Below, one piece after another: positions 7,428 to 26,515 of a stretch of 64,000 nucleotides of DNA. A program made the translations under genes and the position numbers. Origin of the DNA: a bacterium. GTDB lineage: Bacteria > Electryoneota > Electryoneia > Electryoneales > Electryoneaceae. Location of the stretch: contig CAXXKJ010000002.1 of assembly GCA_963675295.2 (NCBI GenBank), forward strand, positions 1,248,001 through 1,312,000, given 5' to 3'. Numbering within the stretch: the first letter of the stretch is position 1; the number at the start of each line of letters is the position of its first letter. The notes under the pieces are model-generated. The model was given only the letters and a program-made list of their open reading frames with translations, searched no databases and was not told where the DNA came from.

Positions 7428-9197
7428 ATGACACACAACCGTTCATCAACTTTCCCCCGATTCCCTCACCTCGCCGTGTTCACGTTGACACTGATGGCGA
7501 TGTTTTTCTTGCCGTTCCCGACCTCTGCCCAATGGTCTGGGGAGGGTGTTCTGCTGGTAGATCGAGGTCCGTTGTCAACGGACATGTGCCCGGACGGTCA
7601 AGGTGGACTGTGGTATGCTCAGCTTGCTACGGATCCTGTTGTTCAGCAGGTTGTCGTCCAGCATCTCGACAGCGAGGGATACCGGTCCTTTGATTTGCAG
7701 GGGATTCCCGTGGCGCGGGATTCGACGCACTACCTGTGTGGAATTCAGCCTGGTCCGGATGGTGATTGCATTGTTATGTATTCGCGTGGCTACCTCGACA
7801 ACCAGGAAGTGATCTATGATATTTACGCGCAACGGATCACCCAGCAGGGCGAACTCTTGTGGGGTGAGTTGGGCCTGGATATCAGTACCCATAGCCACAC
7901 ACACAAAATACCGTTGAGCTTCCTCGGCCATTGGACACTCTCCGATGGCGCTGGTGGATTGTGGGGGGTCTGGTGCATGGGTGTTGGCTACTACAACGCC
8001 TTCGTGTGTGGTGTCAACGCCGATGGCACACTGAAGTGTCCGGACGGCGATCTCCATGTTGGATTCGCTACTAACAATCTATTAACCTGCGAATTTGTTG
8101 ACGATGGCGCGGGGGGCATGGTCGTCCTTTACGGTACAGATGCTGACGGCTAATGGGGAGTTCGGCACATCTATGCCCAGCGAATCCTTGCTGATGGATC
8201 CACGTTGTATGATGACGCGTTGCTGGTAATGGACAAACCTCTGGGCAATGCTTTTGTTTATGGCACATGGCAAGACATCTATCTTCGCCGTGATCCCCAA
8301 GGTGGGTATGCGATCACCACACCGATCTATTGGCAGCGGCTTTCTGATGATCTCGTTCCGCAATGGGCGATCGAAGGTGTTGAGGTATATAATACCTGGG
8401 AGCCAACCTGGCACTATCGTGGTGATCAATCCAGCCCAGTAATCCTTGCGGATCGCACTGTACAACAACTCTGCCTTGACAGCCGTCATGCCCGCCCTCG
8501 TTTTGAACAACTGCTGCTGGATGGCACACGCCGTCACGGGACAGACTGGGGACCTGCCGCAGGTGACAGTACCGTCGAACAATACTCACCGGGACCGGAT
8601 TTGCTCTCTCCTGATGGTGAATCGGTCATTTGCTATTACAAAGGCGCTATTGGTTTCGAGGATTATCAAGAATTCCTGGTTCAACGGATCACACCGGATG
8701 GTGATAATATCTGGCCCCAAATCACAGTTCTTGGTGTTGATAGTTTTTCTTACGGAGTTAAGGAGTATGCTGGTTTCTATCTCGATGATGAAAGTGTTGC
8801 ATATGTAGCTGGTAGTGTTGATCCCTATCGTAATTTCGCGTTCAAAGTCTATATTGACGATGGTTCCGTAGCTGGTGATAATGATGTAGCATCTTCGCCA
8901 GCAACCGCCATTCTCCCTTCAGATTCACCTGTCCTGATTAGCAATGCCTATCCGAATCCGTTCAACAGCAGCATCGCTCTGACGATCTCGGTTCGCGATC
9001 CGGGTGTTTACGACCTCATCGTCCGCAATGTATTGGGACAGACACTCCACCGTGAAGCAGTGGACAGCCGCACGCCCGGCGAATTCGTTCAGACCCTGAC
9101 CCTGCCGGACGGGTGCGCGTCGGGGATCTACTTCCTCACGTTGCAGCACACGGATGGCCGCAACCTGAGCCAGAAGAAGGTCGTGTATCTGCGGTGA
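7428..9197 (+). pseudogene. Secreted repeat protein with C-terminal sorting domain, interrupted by in-frame TAA (8151-8153)
   Basis: ORFs 7428-8153 and 8205-9197 share a frame; the gap reads WGVRHIYAQRILADGST, matching the upstream DIYAQRIT repeat; signal peptide and AYPNPFN tail. Confidence 0.8.
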
Positions 9198-14473: not shown

Positions 14474-14503
14474 CGGGGACACTTACTCCGCTAAGTGTCC
14501 CCG
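14474..14503. repeat. CGGGGACAC...GTGTCCCCG hairpin family
   Basis: Also at 19862-19892 and 63038-63075, with different inner stems that still pair. Confidence 0.75.
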
Positions 14504-14725
14504 TTTTATTTGTCTTCAACACGTCCGAGTTCCGACTACCGTTTTTTCACCCATCCACACCCTCCCAGGTTGTTTCTTCTTTTCCTCACACCTCACACCT
14601 CACACCTCACACTTGCCTTTCGAGGCATCAACTTTGCAGTTAGGATAACCGAACTATTCCGCTGCTCCAGCGTGAAACAGGGCAGTGGACGACGGTGAAC
14701 CTTGAGACTGAGAGAGGTTGAGACG

Positions 14726-15517
14726 ATGAAACGGATGATGACTGGACTTACGCTGCTGGCGGCGGTGCTGTTGACCGTGTCGCCGGGGTATGCGTTGAAT
14801 GTCGGCGAGATGGCGCCGGACTTCACGTTGCAGGACACGGACGGCAACTGGCACACCCTGTCCGATTACGAGGGCAAGGTGGTGTTCCTCTTCTTCATGG
14901 GTGCCACGTGAGGCATCTGCCGGTCCCAGGCTGGGGCTGAAGAAGACAATATCTGGCAGGAATACATGGACGATCCGAACTTCGTCATGTTCGGACTGGA
15001 CCGCTGGGATCTGCCCGCGCCGTCGGTTGTCGACTTCGCGGATGATACCGGCTGCACATTCCCGTTCCTGACGATGGCGTACGAAACCGGGCTGGACTAC
15101 GAGAACAATATGAAGTACTGGGTGGTGGATTCGGAAGGGCTGATCGCCTACGAGTCCGGCACTCATGAACAGGACATTCCGGCGCAGCAAACCGCGATCG
15201 AAGCGGCGTTGTCGACGCTCGATGTGGACGAACCCGCGCCACGTGAACAGCCGTCGGAGTTTGTGTTGCTGAACGCCTACCCGAACCCGTTCAACAGCAG
15301 TGTGACAGTCAGCATGGAGCTGCCGGCGAGCGAAACAGTCCGTGTCAGCGTGCTGGACCTGCTCGGCCGTGAGCTGGCGGTGTTGCTGAATAACCGCCGC
15401 AACGCAGGCCAGACCGAGTTGAGCTGGGCACCGATGAATTTGGCGACGGGCGTCTACCTGCTGCGTGTGCAGGGCGAATCCTTCGCGGTGACGCGCAAGC
15501 TGATGTACCTGAAGTAG
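14726..15517 (+). CDS. Secreted selenocysteine-containing redoxin (AhpC/TSA-like, UxxC) with C-terminal sorting domain
   Basis: Signal peptide; VGEMAPDFTL...GKVVFLFFMGAT-TGA(14909-14911)-GIC; frame continues into ORF 14966-15517 ending in AYPNPFN...KLMYLK; hairpin just 3' of UGA. Confidence 0.85.
14916..14943 (+). promoter_or_regulatory. Bacterial SECIS-like hairpin
   Basis: CGGUCCCA-GGC-UGGGGCUG stem; G-starting apical loop begins 17 nt after the UGA. Confidence 0.6.
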
Positions 15518-15981
15518 CACAGTCGCGGCGATGACCGCGTTGAAAGACATCCCAACCCCGTCCATCTGGCCGGGGTTTTCTCGTACCCGTTTGAGCAGGT
15601 GGTCCGGTAGCGAACGCTGAAATTGATCCATAACGATACGAGTTAGTGTATCGTATTTAAACGAAAACCACATCATCTCTCCGAAGAGCCCTCCTGAAAC
15701 TGAGTATAACCAAAATTTCCGAAAACCGTCTTTGTTCGTTCAGGGCTTGGTTGTTCATGGGATGGCTTGACAGAATTTCGGATATTTATCGTATTAAAGG
15801 AGTACGAATCAGCAGTCGCTCCGCAAAAACTGGCACGCTGTCTGTACTACACCCACCCGACAAGCAAATCAGGCCTCCGCCGTTCGTGGCGGATGCAGCT
15901 AGACGGCGAATCCGTGAACAATCCTTGTGGGAAGGTTGGGATTCGTCATAAACAGACGGTCAACTTTTTAGGAGGACTGCC

Positions 15982-18900
15982 ATGATGAAGTGGCTGCGTG
16001 ACCTGAACAACACTCGCAAAACGATGTTGTTTATTGTGCCCCTGCTGGCGCTGTTGCTGGTGGTGAGTGGGTGCGATGATGATGACGATGATAACAACAA
16101 CGGCGTAGCGCCGGAGCCGGAAAGCGCTCAGCTGCGTGTGACGCATTTAAGCCCGGATGCTCCCCCGGTGGACATCTACGTTGACGGCGCGATGGTGCTG
16201 AGCAACGTCGACTACCTCGCGGTCAGTGAGTATCTCGAATTGGACGCCGGCATGCACAACGTGCAGGTGTACGCGACCGGCACAACAGACAACGCCGTGA
16301 TTGACGCCGACGTCAGCCTGATGGGTGAGATGGCGTACACCGTCGCCGCGGTTGGAAAGCTGGACAACATCCAGCCGGCGGTTTACGAAGACATGACCGA
16401 ACCCGGCGAAGATGTGATGCTGCGGTTCGTGCACGCCTCCCCGGACGCTCCGGCGGTGGACATCACTGATATGGACGGCAACGTGATCTTCGAGAACGTG
16501 TCGTTCACCGAAGCTGGCAACTACATCACTGTTCCGGAAGCCCAGTACAACCTGCAGGTGCGGGTCGCGGGCACGGAGACGATCGTGCTCACGCTCAGCA
16601 ACGTGATGCTGAACGCTGAGACGAACTACACGGTCTGGGCGGTTGGCCTGGCGGCTGAAGAAGGCGAAATGGGCCTGATGGCGGTCGCGACGGCGGAAAC
16701 CGGATCCGGTTCCACCTCGATGGTGCTGCCGACCGACACCGCGCTGCTGCGTGTCAGCCACCTGAGCCCGGACGCTCCCCCGGTGGACGTCTACGTTGAC
16801 AGCCGTAAGGTGCTGGAAAATGTGGCGTACCTCGGTGTCAGCAACTACCTGACGGTTGGTGCGGGTACGCGCAATGTGCAGGTGTACGCCACCGGTACGA
16901 TGGATAACGCAGTAATCGACGCCGATGTGACCGTGTCTATGGACATGGCGTACACGGTGGCTGCGGTTGGCGAACTGGCCAACATTCAGCCGGCGGTGTA
17001 CATGGATGATCGCACTCCGGCGGGCGACGTAAAGGTGCGCTTCATCCACACCTCCCCGAACGCTCCGGCGGTGGACATCACACTCGCCGACGGCACCCCG
17101 TTGTTTGAGAACGTCAGCTTCCCGGAAGCGGCAGAGTTCATCAACGTTACCGGCGGAACGTATGACCTGCAGGTTCGCGCCGCGGGCACGGACAACGTGG
17201 TCATTGGCTTCAACGGTGTCGGCCTCAGCGACGGTGACGTGGTCACCATCTGGGCGGTTGGCAAGCTGAACGGCGCTGAAGCGGAAATGCTGAAGGCCGT
17301 GGCGACGATTGACGCCCCGGGCAACGGCGCGGACGCGACCGTGATCACGCCGGACATGGCGAGTGTGCGTGTCGCGCACCTCAGCCCGGACGCTCCGGCG
17401 GTGGATGTTTACGTCGATGGCATGATGGTGCTGGAAGGTGTGGGTTACCTCGGCCTCAGCCCGTACCTGATGGTCAACAGCGGTTCGCGTCAGATTCAGG
17501 TCTTCGCGACCGGCACGGACAGCGATCCGGTGATAGATGCCGTGGTCAGCGTCGAAACCGACATGGCGTACACCGTTGCCGCGACCGGTTCGCTGGGCGA
17601 CAATGACCTCGCACCGATCGTGACCATGGACAGCCGTGAGACGGATAGTGGCGTTCAGGTTCGCTTCGCGCACACCTCCCCCGACGCGCCGGAAGTCGAC
17701 ATCACCCTGCCGGACGGCACGGTTCTGTTCGACAACGTCAATTTCCGTGAACTCAGCCCGGCGGACGGTTATGCCAGCCTCGGCGCCGGTACCTACGATC
17801 TGCAGGTTCGCACCAGCGACGGTGAGACCATTGTGCAGACCTTCGAAGATGTTGAACTGAGCAACGAAACCACGATCACCGTCTGGGCGGTGGACTTCCT
17901 CGCCGACGATGGCCTCGTGCGCGCCGTGGTGACGCGGGATGCCTTCGAGGATGGATCGACCGCTGCCGTGCTGACTGGTGTCGAATACGTTCCGCCGATG
18001 GCTGAGGTTCGTGTCAGCCACCTGAGCCCGGATGCACCGAATGTGGACGTCTATGTGGACGGCGCGATGGTGCTGGAGAATGTGGCTTACCTCGGCGTTA
18101 GCCCGTACCTCGAGGTTGAAGCGGGTGACCGCCAGGTGCAGGTGTTCGTGACCGGAACGAACAGCGATCCGGTGATTGACGCGACCCTGTCCTTCGAGAT
18201 GGACATGGCGTACACCGTCGCCGCGATCGGTTCGATTGACCTCGGCAACTTCGGCCCGGCGGTCAGCATGGACCAGCGCGACGGTGACAGCAACGTGCAG
18301 GCTCGTTTCGTGCACGCTTCCCCGGACGCCCCGGAAGTTGACATCACGTTGACTGACGGCACGGTCCTATTTGACAACGTTGACTTCGGTGAATTTTCGC
18401 CGGGTACGGATGCATACGCCGGTCTTGATGGCGGTACCTACGATCTGCAGGTTCGCACCAGTGATGGCATGACCATCGTGCAGCAGATTGACGGCGTCAG
18501 CCTCAGTGACGGCACGGTCTACACCCTGTGGGCGGTGGACTTCCTCAGCGATGATGGCTTGGTTCGCGTTGCCGCGACCGAGGACAACATCGCGGACGGA
18601 AGCAACGTTGGCCTGCTTGAAGGCTATGTCCCGATGGCCGAGCTGCGTGTTGGGCACCTGAGCCCGGACGCGCCGAACGTGGACGTCTATTTCGCTGGTG
18701 AGATGGTGCTTCAGAACGTGCCGTACCTGACCGTCAGCGACTATCTCGAAATCCCGGCTGGTACCAGCCAGGTCCAGGTCTTCGCCACTGGTGACATGGG
18801 CAGCCCGGTCATTGACGAGATGCTCACGTTCAATACCAGCATGGCGTACACCGTTGCCGCGATCGGTTCCATCGGCGAAGGCAACTTCCAGCCGGTGGTG

Positions 18901-19854
18901 ACGAACGATTCGCGCATGGGCAACGGCGAACCGTGGGTGCGTTTCGTGCACGCCTCGCCGGATGCTCCGGCGGTGGATGTCACCACGTTCACCGGTTCGT
19001 TCCTCGCGGACAATCTTGATTTCTCGGATGTGCAGGGCTACAGCGCGTTCAACGACATGGTCTATGACCTGTTCCTGCGTCCCGCCGGGACTGATGATGT
19101 CGCGGCCGGGTTCGCCGGGGTGCCGTTCGTCAGCAATACGAACATCACCATCTGGGTGGTTGGCTTCCTCGGTGGCGAGGGCAACGAGGCGCTGAAGGCA
19201 GTCATCACGGAAGAGACGATGGGCGGCATGTCGCCGATCGTGGCGGATGTGTCGGGCCTGACCGAGGTTCGTGTCGGTCACCTGAGCCCGGATGCTCCGG
19301 CGGTGAACGTCTACATCGACGGCATGATGGCGGTCGGGAATGCGTCCTACAAGGATGTCACTGGCTACCTCACGCTGACCGAAGGCGCGCACATGGTTGA
19401 GATCGAGCTGACCGACGGTACGCCGGTCTTGATGGAAACCGTGATGCCGGAAGCGGGCAACGCGTACACCGTCGCGGCGATTGGTTTCGCCGGTGGTGGC
19501 ATGAACCCGCTGATGCTGAACACGTGGATGGACGACCGGATGACAACCGGCGAGGCGAAGCTGCGGTTCGTGCACACCTCCCCGGACGCTCCGGCGGTGG
19601 ATGTGGGCGTGACCGATGGTCCGATCCTGTTCATGGATACGGCGTATCCGGAAGCGGCGGATGAGGGCTACATCGGAGTCGCCGGCGGCAGCTACAACCT
19701 GTCGGTGTACCTGTCCGGCACGGACACCGAGGTGTTGAGCCTGACCGATGTCGCCGTCATGGGTGGCACCAACTACAGCGTGTTCGCGATTGGCACCGCT
19801 GATGCGGAAGATGAGATTCCGCTGGAAGCGCTGATCGTGATCGATGCTGAGTAA
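15982..19854 (+). CDS. Large lipoprotein with six tandem DUF4397-like modules
   Basis: Lipobox VSG-C then acidic run; six HLSPDAP and six H(A/T)SP(D/N)AP motifs; AGGAGG RBS. Confidence 0.85.
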   Translation: MMKWLRDLNNTRKTMLFIVPLLALLLVVSGCDDDDDDNNNGVAPEPESAQLRVTHLSPDAPPVDIYVDGAMVLSNVDYLAVSEYLELDAGMHNVQVYATGTTDNAVIDADVSLMGEMAYTVAAVGKLDNIQPAVYEDMTEPGEDVMLRFVHASPDAPAVDITDMDGNVIFENVSFTEAGNYITVPEAQYNLQVRVAGTETIVLTLSNVMLNAETNYTVWAVGLAAEEGEMGLMAVATAETGSGSTSMVLPTDTALLRVSHLSPDAPPVDVYVDSRKVLENVAYLGVSNYLTVGAGTRNVQVYATGTMDNAVIDADVTVSMDMAYTVAAVGELANIQPAVYMDDRTPAGDVKVRFIHTSPNAPAVDITLADGTPLFENVSFPEAAEFINVTGGTYDLQVRAAGTDNVVIGFNGVGLSDGDVVTIWAVGKLNGAEAEMLKAVATIDAPGNGADATVITPDMASVRVAHLSPDAPAVDVYVDGMMVLEGVGYLGLSPYLMVNSGSRQIQVFATGTDSDPVIDAVVSVETDMAYTVAATGSLGDNDLAPIVTMDSRETDSGVQVRFAHTSPDAPEVDITLPDGTVLFDNVNFRELSPADGYASLGAGTYDLQVRTSDGETIVQTFEDVELSNETTITVWAVDFLADDGLVRAVVTRDAFEDGSTAAVLTGVEYVPPMAEVRVSHLSPDAPNVDVYVDGAMVLENVAYLGVSPYLEVEAGDRQVQVFVTGTNSDPVIDATLSFEMDMAYTVAAIGSIDLGNFGPAVSMDQRDGDSNVQARFVHASPDAPEVDITLTDGTVLFDNVDFGEFSPGTDAYAGLDGGTYDLQVRTSDGMTIVQQIDGVSLSDGTVYTLWAVDFLSDDGLVRVAATEDNIADGSNVGLLEGYVPMAELRVGHLSPDAPNVDVYFAGEMVLQNVPYLTVSDYLEIPAGTSQVQVFATGDMGSPVIDEMLTFNTSMAYTVAAIGSIGEGNFQPVVTNDSRMGNGEPWVRFVHASPDAPAVDVTTFTGSFLADNLDFSDVQGYSAFNDMVYDLFLRPAGTDDVAAGFAGVPFVSNTNITIWVVGFLGGEGNEALKAVITEETMGGMSPIVADVSGLTEVRVGHLSPDAPAVNVYIDGMMAVGNASYKDVTGYLTLTEGAHMVEIELTDGTPVLMETVMPEAGNAYTVAAIGFAGGGMNPLMLNTWMDDRMTTGEAKLRFVHTSPDAPAVDVGVTDGPILFMDTAYPEAADEGYIGVAGGSYNLSVYLSGTDTEVLSLTDVAVMGGTNYSVFAIGTADAEDEIPLEALIVIDAE

Positions 19855-24703: not shown

Positions 24704-26515
24704 TTACCTCACAAGCATCACCTTGCGCACGGCGTTCAGCTCACCTGGCACCGTGGCGCGGACGAAATACAGACCGCTGGCGAGGGTGGACGCATCAAAC
24801 GTCAGACGGTGTTCGCCGGCGTTATACGTACTGTTCGCCACTGTCGCCACCTGCTGGCCGGTGATGTTGTAAACGGTCACCTTCAGCTCGGCCATTTCCG
24901 GCAGCGTCACGTGGATTGTCGTCGCGGCGTTGAACGGGTTCGGATACACAGCTGTCAAGGCGTACTCGCCCGGGAGGGCCGCATCCGCGATAATCGGCTC
25001 AGGCTGGTCGCCGAGCAGCGTGCCGCTAAGCTCTGCCGGTCCATCGGTTGCGCCGGTTTTGGTAAACGTCATGATTGAACGTCCGCGCGGCACATCTCCG
25101 GATCGCAGGGTCAGCTCCAGCGCGTATTCACCTGCGGGAGCTCCACCTGGAACTTGCACCGAACACGACTGGAGGCGTACCGGCTCCCCGGGTTGAAACG
25201 TCCTGGTAACCTGGTCGATCAGCATGGGATCGCCGTCAGGCATTATGGCATCGAGCCTGATCGTGTAATTCATGGGCGTAGCGAGACCATTTCGCACCAG
25301 CACATTAAAACTGACCTGTCCGCCCTGCGGGGTGAAATCATAGCGGTCTTTCAGATGTGCCAACAGCTCAAGTTGTGGGACGCCAATTCCCGGTTCCAGC
25401 TTGATCAGCCACGGTTCGTTCTCCGGCGTCATGCCGAGGCAGATGAAGCCGCCGTCAATCGTGCGCTTAATGCTGGTTAACACCCCGTCTCCGGGAAACA
25501 GTTCCCAGCTCTGGTTGCTGGTTGTGGTGAATTCGGTGATATAGGCGTGCTGGGTTGGAGAATCGACCGGAGTGTTTTCACCGACGACAAACGCTGAGTA
25601 TTCATCGCCATAATAGGACTCAATAGCAACGTCATGTCCTCGGCGAATATGGTCATCCTGCCAGTTGCCGACGGTCTGCGCCCACAGGATATCGCCTTCC
25701 TGTGTCGTCCGCATGACATACAGTCCATAGTCGGTCGGATCGTTGAATCCACCTTCGATGTAGGTATCCCCGACCGTAATCAACGTGCCGTCTTGCAGCT
25801 GCTCGGTGGCATAGCTGCGATAATCTGCAGCGGTGACGTGCGCATCATAATCCAGCTGCGTGCCGTCCTCGAGGAACCAGACGTAATAAACCGCCCAGTT
25901 CATGTCGTTTGTGTACCAACCGGCGGTGAGATACGATCCATCGTTCAATTGTTCGATGTCTTCCGCGTGCGCGACGTGCCCGCCAGGCTCGTAGGCATAC
26001 TCAATCGTCTCCGGATTCAAACCGAATCGATCCAGCCGGTTCAGGAACATTGATCCCATGGAATGCAGCAGGAAGTTGCCCCTGGCTGTTTGGTGCAGGT
26101 CACGCGGATAAACTGCACCCGCGAAATTGAAGTTTGGCCGGACCCAGATTGGGTTCGGATTTCCCGGCTGGAACTTGACGTCGAACGCGTCGTGCCCGCC
26201 GGTGAAGGTTCCGGCGACGAAGTAGTTGCCGTCAAAAGTCGGCGTGCAGATGGCGTTGGCGATGTCATTGCCCCAACTGATCGTTTCGATCTCGTTGCCG
26301 TCCATGTCAAAGCGATGGAGACGCAGCTGGCTACCGTCCGCGCTGGAGGTCGCGTAAGCGAGCAGGATGTCGCCATTGTGACAGATTTCCACCGACAACG
26401 GAGTCTGGTAAGGATCTGCTGGCACGGGAATAATCGTTTCCCACTCAATGTCGGGCTGGGCGTTGACGGTGATGGCGAGGAAAAGTGCTGCGATACAGAC
26501 GAGAATAGTCTTCAT
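24704..26515 (-). CDS. Secreted beta-propeller-like protein with adaptor and C-terminal sorting domain
   Basis: Signal peptide; DGxY/F...G repeats; VPGGAPAGEY; VYPNPFN...KVMLVR. Confidence 0.85.
   Translation of the reverse strand: MKTILVCIAALFLAITVNAQPDIEWETIIPVPADPYQTPLSVEICHNGDILLAYATSSADGSQLRLHRFDMDGNEIETISWGNDIANAICTPTFDGNYFVAGTFTGGHDAFDVKFQPGNPNPIWVRPNFNFAGAVYPRDLHQTARGNFLLHSMGSMFLNRLDRFGLNPETIEYAYEPGGHVAHAEDIEQLNDGSYLTAGWYTNDMNWAVYYVWFLEDGTQLDYDAHVTAADYRSYATEQLQDGTLITVGDTYIEGGFNDPTDYGLYVMRTTQEGDILWAQTVGNWQDDHIRRGHDVAIESYYGDEYSAFVVGENTPVDSPTQHAYITEFTTTSNQSWELFPGDGVLTSIKRTIDGGFICLGMTPENEPWLIKLEPGIGVPQLELLAHLKDRYDFTPQGGQVSFNVLVRNGLATPMNYTIRLDAIMPDGDPMLIDQVTRTFQPGEPVRLQSCSVQVPGGAPAGEYALELTLRSGDVPRGRSIMTFTKTGATDGPAELSGTLLGDQPEPIIADAALPGEYALTAVYPNPFNAATTIHVTLPEMAELKVTVYNITGQQVATVANSTYNAGEHRLTFDASTLASGLYFVRATVPGELNAVRKVMLVR

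Follow-up and report, generated by a model that had tools for sequence, protein, structure and literature searches.

Does the TGA codon at positions 14909-14911 of the window (the whole 64,000-nucleotide stretch of bacterial DNA analysed here) terminate a gene, or does it stand for selenocysteine (Sec) inside a longer protein? On the forward strand, which carries all features described below, positions 14726-15517 form a single frame of 263 codons that is interrupted solely by this TGA and followed by the stop codon TAG (15515-15517). We read 14726..15517 as the complete coding sequence of a selenoprotein. Taken as a whole, the explanation that we consider likely is an exported ResA/TlpA-like thiol-disulfide oxidoreductase, with a Sec residue decoded via a SECIS element and with a T9SS sorting signal that sets its route. 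The initial annotation had already proposed one 263-aa protein with Sec62 and Cys65, a signal peptide, a UxxC thioredoxin fold and a T9SS-like sorting tail, a composition that the sequence supports.

A reading frame interrupted by one TGA

Under translation table 11 the locus appears as two same-frame open reading frames (ORFs): 14702..14911, which gives 69 aa from a TTG or 61 aa from the ATG at 14726, and 14966..15517, which gives 183 aa. That the two belong to one frame split by one TGA, as had been suggested, is confirmed by 14909-14911 being the only break. Reading through it yields 263 residues, with U62 and C65 in the motif FLFFMGAT-U-GI-C. The start at 14726 is consistent with the N-termini of the orthologs, and a Shine-Dalgarno-like purine-rich stretch read from the sequence, GAGAGAGG (14710..14717), ends 8 nt before this ATG.

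The splitting of such a gene by automated annotation, foreseen in the initial annotation, was found in the databases: the closest entries (P0002-P0004) are fragments of 177-183 aa that start after the TGA, and P0002 is labelled only 'T9SS type A sorting domain-containing protein'. Because the entries of its relatives are fragments labelled for the sorting domain only, the protein is missed both by surveys of secreted proteins and by surveys of selenoproteomes.

At the protein level, the Pfam domains AhpC-TSA (residues 26-115, 49.1 bits, cut-off 26) and Redoxin (residues 26-123, 41.5 bits, cut-off 26.6) both span residue 62. Since both matches cross the TGA, the sequences on either side of it belong to a single domain. 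The codon itself is reproduced in other assemblies. It is not an assembly error, because it recurs in 13 of the 14 orthologs from the phylum and because a contig from a second sample spans 14600-14975 with 0 differences, TGA included.

A true stop, which would leave a pseudogene or two genes for a 61-aa peptide and a 183-aa protein, agrees with the table 11 reading and with the way in which relatives are listed in the databases, but it is extremely improbable and already contradicted by the comparative data: orthologs with as little as 36% identity keep the TGA in this place, both halves are conserved at the protein level, one Pfam domain runs across it, the 183-aa ORF would begin within strand 86-92 of the modelled fold, and its product would be a sorting tail without any signal peptide.

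Decoding of the TGA codon

In a search of 41 related genomes, each of the 8 best orthologs (36-91% identity) carried exactly one TGA, which falls on the first position of the motif [ST]-U-x-x-C-R-x-Q. A sample of 79 genomes from the phylum contained 14 orthologs at E<=1e-20, with TGA in 13 and Cys in one. Across 20 related loci we counted U in 14 and Cys in 5; L053, a Bcp-type protein without CxxC, was left out of this count. A search of genome contigs gave two loci, L054 and L055, which are, judging by percent identity and coordinates, apparently the same contigs as the matches in genomes G001 and G002. The remoter homologs L042, L047, L049, L050, L052, P0005 and P0006 have CxxC at the UGA position. 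The homologs thus have either Cys or Sec at this codon, the alternation that the initial annotation had named as a check, and its placement of the TGA at the first Cys of a CxxC holds: the codon is the first position of the UxxC in the Redoxin/AhpC-TSA domain. The predicted Sec62 (14909..14911) would be the attacking residue of this centre and Cys65 (TGC, 14918..14920) the resolving one; both columns are invariant in alignment A2, with U read as C.

Downstream of the UGA, folding and homolog comparison point to a SECIS core hairpin at 14922..14938. It consists of a 7-bp stem, GGUCCCA/UGGGGCU (14922-14928 paired with 14932-14938), and a GGC triloop (14929-14931); in the minimum-energy prediction it is extended by an outer stem (14917-14921 with 14955-14959). 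The stem coincides with the codons for R-S-Q-A-G-A. A hairpin with a G-starting loop had been placed 17 nt downstream in the initial annotation; this distance is correct for the first loop G, but the stem already starts 10 nt after the UGA. In bacterial SECIS elements, as described for bSECISearch, approximately 16-37 nt separate the UGA from the loop.

Taken alone, the hairpin in the window does not exceed shuffled sequence in stability (z -0.47 and z -0.30), and its significance comes only from the comparison of homologs. It is present at a fixed offset in all 14 aligned UGA forms, on which the helix is 96.7% paired, compared with 67.6% for shuffles and 33-48% for slid partners. Six of the seven base pairs covary, with both partners changing, whereas A20 and G21, the latter being the first loop base, are invariant across the 14 forms. 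Part of this covariation is entangled with protein constraint, as the stem lies within conserved codons. Four of the five Cys forms have no comparable hairpin, and their folding energies in the hairpin window are just -0.5 to -4.5 kcal/mol; the fifth, L050, reaches -9.9 kcal/mol with a differently placed stem. An Rfam scan of 14500-15700 returned five chance-level matches (E 1.3-5.6), none of them SECIS and all far below the gathering scores.

Two broader scans were also carried out. Metagenome contigs were scanned at the DNA level for F-x-G-x-x-TGA-x-x-C-R-x-Q-x-G, which gave 81 stretches, 80 of them examined. Sixty-two passed a loose blastp filter and three of these (L115, L126 and L150; E 2e-31 to 5e-33) are true family members; they are 401-403 aa long, carry U61 and have both a signal peptide and a sorting tail. 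Because the scan pattern includes part of the stem, these three are not independent evidence for the SECIS element. The other 59 were rejected, as their frames of 11-232 aa owe their similarity to the pattern; many of them are copies of one unrelated recurring sequence. Secondly, a genome-wide scan for UxxC/CxxU read-through followed by a hairpin gave 937 candidates, and for 452 of these the energy was <= -9 kcal/mol. In this GC-rich genome the scan was too noisy and was therefore used for the stop-codon tally only.

The genome encodes the complete Sec machinery that the initial annotation had proposed to look for, with selA, selB, selC and selD all present above the cut-offs. Profile scores were 524.7 bits for selA, 324.4 bits for selB, 370.1 bits for selD and 68.6 bits for tRNA-Sec, which ARAGORN calls as tRNA-SeC with anticodon tca. 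selD carries an in-frame TGA of its own, followed by a SECIS-like element with a 9-bp stem and a GGU triloop 20 nt after the UGA. Among the stops of long frames in the genome, 986 are TGA, 614 TAA and 502 TAG; since TGA is the commonest of them and also terminates two of the ortholog genes, it is not reassigned.

If the TGA instead encoded a standard amino acid (Trp, Gly or Cys), by a changed code or near-cognate read-through, the frame would likewise be open, but this reading has nothing specific in its favour and is very improbable given this stop usage, the full Sec machinery and a covarying SECIS element that accompanies the UGA and is absent from four of the five Cys forms. The conditions that the initial annotation had set for its own refutation (a genome lacking Sec machinery, homologs with Trp or another non-Cys residue at this position, a TGA due to a reading error) were checked, and each check turned out in its favour. 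The comparative evidence strongly supports the selenoprotein reading, and insertion of Sec at UGA-62 is, in our judgement, very probable.

Export signals and cellular location

By inspection, residues 1-23 (MKRMMTGLTLLAAVLLTVSPGYA, 14726..14794) form a putative signal peptide with likely cleavage after GYA. A basic n-region, a hydrophobic core and an AxA-like site directly preceding the conserved VGxxAPDFTL are kept in the orthologs, and all 8 orthologs inspected have signal peptides. In the AlphaFold model, most of residues 1-21 have a pLDDT below 50. The redoxin domain is followed by a low-confidence, probably flexible linker (residues 167-189, 15224..15292) and by a T9SS type A sorting domain (Por_Secre_tail, 15278..15514), which runs from YPNPFN to KLMYLK. 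This domain matches PF18962 (residues 185-259, 41.6 bits, cut-off 27) and TIGR04183 (40.1 bits, cut-off 23), is modelled as a beta-sandwich (residues 193-261) and is retained in all 13 UGA-bearing orthologs.

With its signal peptide and a C-terminal domain of about 75 residues, the protein resembles other T9SS type A cargo, and the genome has at least 150 matches to sorting tails. PorU was found in the genome with 708.7 bits against a cut-off of 420 and SprA with 830.1 bits against 200, whereas GldK, GldL and GldM were not found: the NCBIfam models for GldL and GldM matched nothing, and the one for GldK matched only in part, with 86.8 bits as the highest score (cut-off 350). The GldL and GldM models stayed silent in every control genome as well, which makes the missing matches weak evidence. 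A PorV-like gene that follows porU scored 153.7 bits, below the cut-off of 250. The proposed routing to the surface or outside is a reasonable inference; the sorting tail, PorU and SprA speak for it, the results for GldK/L/M and the low score of the PorV-like gene against it. Going by these signals, the selenoenzyme is probably displayed on the cell surface or outside it; that it crosses the outer membrane we regard as moderately probable.

An alternative that we consider unlikely is a real selenoprotein whose place of action is the periplasm or the inner side of the outer membrane. In this phylum the C-terminal domain would then bring about no full T9SS secretion, and DsbD/CcdA proteins would reduce the enzyme as they do ResA, TlpA and CcmG. 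The Gld results fit such a location, as do two DsbD/CcdA-type (DsbD_TM) genes in the genome (166.9 and 86 bits) and the nearest solved relatives, which are periplasmic or membrane-anchored reductases. Against it stand a sorting domain that exceeds both curated cut-offs and is kept with the UGA, the scores of PorU and SprA, the number of sorting tails, which argues for a working pathway, and the weakness of the GldL/GldM silence. The DsbD/CcdA-type genes could serve only a periplasmic form of the enzyme.

The gene neighbourhood gives few clues to function. Upstream, an intrinsic-terminator-like hairpin with a 12-bp stem and a T run (14474..14503) follows a MoxR-type ATPase gene and sets it apart from the redoxin gene. 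Downstream, 37 nt after the stop codon, folding suggests a second terminator-like hairpin (AACCCCG...CGGGGUU, then UUUCU; 15554..15577), which a consensus terminator scan missed. The TPR-LepB-MoxR-redoxin order is found only in the closest family (G000, G002 and G011) and contexts elsewhere differ; we rejected the neighbourhood as a clue to function. A role as redox partner of the adjacent secreted-protein block, suggested initially, is not supported: terminator-like hairpins flank the redoxin gene on both sides, and the DUF4397 gene lies 3' of it in only two of the eight genomes whose contexts were compared (G000 and G001). The DUF4397 protein has a single Cys, C31, by eye in an apparent lipobox.

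Fold and active-site chemistry

Pfam, a PDB profile search, the AlphaFold model and Foldseek all place a thioredoxin-fold redoxin domain of ResA/TlpA type at residues ~26-163 (14801..15214). In the profile search 2LS5 scored 104.5 bits, 3KCM 80.6 bits and ResA ~70 bits, and Foldseek gave TM values of 0.83-0.86 to ResA chains (normalised to ResA). The model (mean pLDDT 82.5) puts U62 directly before helix 63-80. Together these results show a ResA/TlpA-like fold in which helix α1 begins at Sec62.

The domain shares with ResA, TlpA and CcmG (e.g. PDB 1SU9, 1ST9, 4NMU, 1JFU) the thioredoxin fold with an extra N-terminal hairpin and a central insert, a redox pair at the start of helix α1 followed by Arg, and export. 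It differs in having Sec for the first Cys, so that W-C-x-x-C becomes [ST]-U-x-x-C, in a basic residue that replaces the cis-proline loop, and in a T9SS sorting tail instead of a membrane anchor. The best solved relative is 2LS5, a putative protein disulfide isomerase of Bacteroides thetaiotaomicron (33% identity by Foldseek). The CxxCR motif is common to both, and on inspection of the alignment 2LS5 has T-R-N where the family has D-R-Q instead of cis-proline; it carries Cys rather than Sec, however, and its solved chain of 159 residues has no sorting tail. Etrx1 and Etrx2 of Streptococcus pneumoniae (PDB 4HQZ, 2YP6; Foldseek TM 0.75-0.77) have a ResA-like fold on the outer cell face; unlike the protein described here they use Cys and a lipid anchor, and their host has no outer membrane. 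They receive electrons via CcdA proteins.

No curated NCBIfam redoxin model attains its cut-off on this family. The ResA model (NF002854) was matched by all 12 aligned members (best E-value 1.7e-18), and the protein encoded in the window scored 40.1 bits against a cut-off of 170. NF053656, named for a TUGYCR motif thioredoxin-fold (seleno)protein, has a T-U-G-Y-C-R motif that nearly equals the T-U-G-I-C-R found here, and it weakly matched 7 of the 12 members; we rejected membership at 21.3 bits (cut-off 100) over residues 32-71 only. A literature search found no publication on this family. NF038285 (deiodinase family protein) also weakly matched 7 of the 12 members. A deiodinase-like reading was dropped, as the score was 33 bits (residues 25-88) against a cut-off of 250 and there was no deiodinase among the PDB and Foldseek matches listed.

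TlpA/ResA proteins typically have a cis-proline loop opposite the active site. By inspection, 11 of the 12 aligned members have no Pro in the stretch before V-[IV]-D and carry R or K instead, and this conserved basic residue is reminiscent of peroxiredoxins, in which a conserved Arg accompanies a peroxidatic Cys in PxxxTxxC spacing. The enzyme could accordingly be a seleno-peroxidase and not a disulfide reductase, with Sec62 as peroxidatic and Cys65 as resolving residue in peroxide removal at the cell surface. The basic residue speaks for this chemistry, as do AhpC-TSA as the best Pfam match and the occurrence of peroxiredoxins (AhpE, Bcp) in the PDB and Foldseek results. We consider it somewhat unlikely, since T or S directly precedes U in the family and the PxxxTxxC spacing is absent, the ResA/TlpA-type structures score above the peroxiredoxins (62.8 and 59.5 bits), and the basic residue in the protein of the window is K and not R. 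This alternative concerns the chemistry only and is compatible with export.

In the mechanism that we propose, the gene would give one exported extracytoplasmic ResA/TlpA-like thiol-disulfide oxidoreductase with the centre U62-G-I-C65. SelB and Sec-tRNA(UCA) would decode UGA-62, guided by the SECIS hairpin in the RSQAG codons. The signal peptide would take the chain through the Sec translocon, the thioredoxin fold would form in the periplasm, and the type A sorting domain would direct the protein into a T9SS-type outer-membrane route with the SprA translocon, a PorV-like shuttle and the PorU sortase, by which it would be displayed on the surface or released. There Sec62 would attack its substrate, a disulfide or perhaps a peroxide, and resolution of the adduct by Cys65 would give a selenenylsulfide.

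To our knowledge, thioredoxin-fold UxxC proteins are the commonest kind of bacterial selenoprotein, and the chemistry is therefore familiar; the unusual part is the T9SS address label. Our literature search found no selenoprotein described as T9SS cargo. SaoB and SaoC are bacterial selenoproteins with signal peptides, described in a preprint by Haft as exposed to the extracellular milieu and as truncated in databases (doi 10.1101/2022.07.06.499078). They differ from the protein of the window in having unrelated folds and CU motifs, in being lipoproteins of mostly Firmicutes, hosts without an outer membrane, and in lacking a T9SS tail.

The redoxins of this family occur as the plain 263-aa form, as a 400-aa form with an insert and as fusions to LVIVD repeats or Ig-like domains. 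We tentatively suggest, as an idea falling slightly short of even balance, that the phylum runs a set of selenoenzymes outside the outer membrane, in which a reduced T9SS that has SprA, PorU and PorV but no recognisable GldKLMN would sort Sec-redoxins of several architectures, and the SECIS RNA, not the enzyme, would dictate the C-R-x-Q-x-G after Sec. We know of no electron donor outside an outer membrane. If the protein reaches the surface, it would be a bacterial counterpart of the extracellular selenoenzymes of animals, it would show that selenium goes into redox defence or substrate processing outside the cell, and the question would arise of how such an enzyme is recycled. If the suggestion for the phylum is true, the cell surface would be a place where resistance to irreversible over-oxidation matters and for which no classical electron donor is known, and selenium would be exported in protein form for Sec-based redox chemistry there.

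A redoxin gene divided at an in-frame TGA

On the plus strand of the window, the 263 codons at 14726-15517 share one reading frame, which is interrupted only once, by the TGA at 14909-14911. As the initial annotation had expected of automated gene calling, translation table 11 cuts the gene into two ORFs (14702..14911 and 14966..15517), while the read-through product carries U62 and C65 within FLFFMGAT-U-GI-C. In Pfam, AhpC-TSA (residues 26-115, 49.1 bits, cut-off 26) and Redoxin (residues 26-123, 41.5 bits) both match across the TGA, confirming one frame split at the first UxxC position. The proposed C-terminal sorting tail was recovered above cut-off by Por_Secre_tail (Pfam, residues 185-259, 41.6 bits, cut-off 27) and by TIGR04183 (40.1 bits, cut-off 23).

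A sequencing error at the TGA is contradicted by a second sample (run X4, record 5), whose contigs cover 14600-14975 without a single difference. In a relative from another study (run X5, record 7), there are 101 differences over 14624-15517, and among 40 differences listed (58 more besides) none lies within 14870-15027. Runs X1 and X3 were not counted as independent, because this assembly possibly derives from them.

The Sec machinery was found in the genome holding the window (G000; 4.81 Mb, 2 contigs, 92.8 % complete), with all four components above curated cut-offs: selA (524.7 bits), selB (324.4 bits), selD (370.1 bits, with its own in-frame TGA) and a tRNA-Sec (68.6 bits, gathering score 47), for which ARAGORN reports the anticodon tca. 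The selD gene (G000:C2:1038834-1039763, locus L010, outside the window) is itself a selenoprotein gene, with U in TRCAGUASK. TGA is not reassigned, because among frames of at least 400 codons more end in TGA (986) than in TAA (614) or TAG (502), and the coding sequences of two orthologs themselves terminate with it.

With the redoxin part as query, a search of 41 related genomes returned 20 loci. The best eight matches (E-values from 1.8e-120 to 1.3e-29, identity as low as 36 %) each contain exactly one TGA, which in translation always takes the first position (U) of the motif in [ST]-U-x-x-C-R-x-Q. Across the 20 loci, the residue at this site is U in 14 and Cys in five (L042, L047, L049, L050, L052); L053, a Bcp-type protein without CxxC, was set aside. 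In a phylum sample of 79 genomes, 14 encode an ortholog at E ≤ 1e-20 and 13 of these keep the TGA, the sole Cys ortholog lying at a contig end in genome G064. CPPC and CSSC stand at this site in the full-length metagenomic homologs P0005 and P0006, respectively, both with the sorting tail. This pattern is the classic Sec/Cys alternation. Taken together, the redoxin locus is very probably a real, conserved selenoprotein gene divided by annotation.

Relatives encode further UGA-containing redoxins with signal peptides, in which the layout of UGA and hairpin is identical throughout. Between the redoxin domain and a C-terminal Por_Secre_tail, L046 has an ASH/Ig-like domain (364 aa) and L041 an insert (401 aa), while LVIVD repeats in L043 (795 aa) and an Ig-like domain in L044 (667 aa) precede the redoxin domain and the tail; L048 and L051 are forms without tail (172 aa). 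In genome G009, a second redoxin, a 499-aa Cys-type Redoxin/Thioredoxin protein (L065:1617-3116), adjoins the Sec-redoxin ortholog in divergent orientation. A highly recurrent sequence in many metagenome contigs, some labelled gut, matched the degenerate search pattern by chance in short frames and was rejected as unrelated to the family (L077, L084-L086, L089, L090, L096, L099 and many others).

The SECIS hairpin and the peptide motif after Sec

All 14 UGA forms fold a hairpin of 6-7 bp at a common offset (-8.6 to -14.9 kcal/mol, window +10 to +40 from the UGA), whereas folding of the Cys forms in the same window yields only -0.5 to -4.5 kcal/mol for four of the five and, for the fifth, L050, -9.9 kcal/mol with a differently placed stem. 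In a gapless RNA alignment of the 14 UGA forms, 96.7 % of the cells in the helix (columns 14-20 with 24-30) are paired, compared to 67.6 % in column shuffles, none of 500 of which reached the observed value, and sliding the 3' partners by 1-3 columns lowered pairing to 33-48 %. Six of the seven pairs show changes on both sides; A20 and G21, the first loop base, are invariant. The same hairpin is found in five more orthologs outside this alignment (L069-L073, -5.9 to -10.6). By itself, the window's hairpin does not exceed shuffled sequence in stability (z -0.47 and -0.30). The initial description of the locus is accurate with one clarification on the hairpin: at 17 nt after the UGA it is the loop that starts, not the stem. 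This loop is a GGC triloop; the element of selD, serving as internal control, has a 9-bp stem and a GGU triloop 20 nt 3' of its UGA.

The SECIS stem overlaps the codons for R-S-Q-A-G, so that constraint on the RNA is mixed with constraint on the protein. The closest UGA-bearing orthologs share C-R-x-Q-x-G after Sec (codons 66-70, 14921-14935), and the Cys forms have CISDGP, CMANAV, CKTHGP or CKSIGN. Because the Cys forms are without R-x-Q-x-G and, in four of five, without a comparable hairpin, we infer that the peptide motif may follow from, or be imposed by, the RNA stem.

Fold and genomic neighbourhood

The product is a UxxC redoxin of the ResA/TlpA-like kind that begins with a signal peptide and ends in a T9SS type A tail. 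A profile built from 12 members of the family matched TlpA/ResA-type PDB chains (2LS5, 104.5 bits; 3KCM, 80.6 bits; ResA, about 70 bits) above peroxiredoxin-like chains (62.8 and 59.5 bits). The AlphaFold model (mean pLDDT 82.5) has three parts, a thioredoxin fold (residues 28-163) in which U62 immediately precedes helix 63-80, a low-confidence linker (167-189) and a beta-sandwich (193-261). Foldseek matched the model to 2LS5 and ResA (for ResA, TM 0.83-0.86 and rmsd 2.0-2.2) as well as to Etrx2, a surface thioredoxin of pneumococci. TlpA-like proteins carry a cis-proline at a site where, on inspection of the protein alignment, 11 of the 12 members have R or K, a replacement that would be compatible with peroxidase-type chemistry. 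The specific NCBIfam models all stayed below their cut-offs (ResA, 40.1 bits, cut-off 170; deiodinase-related, 33 bits, cut-off 250; TUGYCR selenoprotein, 21.3 bits, cut-off 100).

Around the redoxin gene, the order is TPR protein, signal peptidase I (minus strand), MoxR-type ATPase, a strong terminator-like hairpin (14474-14503), redoxin, a second terminator-like hairpin (15554-15577), a DUF4397 protein (15982-19854, plus strand; 1290 aa, 12 repeats, 724.9 bits) and a dUTPase (minus strand). A role of the redoxin for the neighbouring secreted block is not supported, because only G000 and G001, of eight genomes whose context was examined, have the DUF4397 neighbour 3' of the redoxin, and its single Cys, C31, lies by eye in an apparent lipobox. 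In G002, the dUTPase directly follows the redoxin, and the surroundings in G009, G040 and G034 are unrelated; the DUF4397 gene looks like a lineage-specific insertion between redoxin and dUTPase. Elsewhere in G000, at least five sites carry identical frames of roughly 500 codons, all ending in the same strong hairpin (G000:C2:142854-144467, 218342-220060, 854974-856587, 1778586-1780232, 4380883-4382538 and others), with overlapping identical frames of 75 and 125 codons on the opposite strand; they are probably a multi-copy insertion element.

Proposed export of the selenoprotein

By inspection, the N-terminus of all eight orthologs examined is basic, then hydrophobic and ends in an AxA-like site immediately before the conserved VGxxAPDFTL, in agreement with the predicted signal peptide. 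The sorting tail is kept in all 13 UGA-bearing orthologs, and G000 encodes at least 150 Por_Secre_tail-like C-terminal domains. Two further proteins in the window match this model, at 8205-9197 (plus strand) and 24704-26515 (minus strand), with 21.8 bits (under cut-off) and 47 bits; one has 603 aa and also matches FlgD_ig. PorU (708.7 bits, cut-off 420) and SprA (830.1 bits, cut-off 200) are present, a PorV-like gene immediately 3' of porU stays under the cut-off (153.7 bits, cut-off 250) and GldK gave partial matches only. GldM and GldL had no match in G000, a weak test as both models are silent in every control genome, too. The T9SS of this phylum may be reduced or divergent. Since this evidence is mixed and the products of two DsbD/CcdA-type genes in G000 could reduce a periplasmic redoxin, we infer secretion across the outer membrane only as plausible.

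Literature searches, with most subscription journals outside their scope, returned incidental mentions for selenoprotein or selenocysteine with type IX secretion and nothing for TUGYCR and related phrases. On selenoproteins that are extracellular, secreted, periplasmic or exported, the matches listed concern animal GPX3 or SELENOP. The Haft preprint (doi 10.1101/2022.07.06.499078) describes the selenoproteins SaoB and SaoC, mostly from Firmicutes, as exposed to the extracellular milieu, so that exported selenoproteins have precedent in bacteria.
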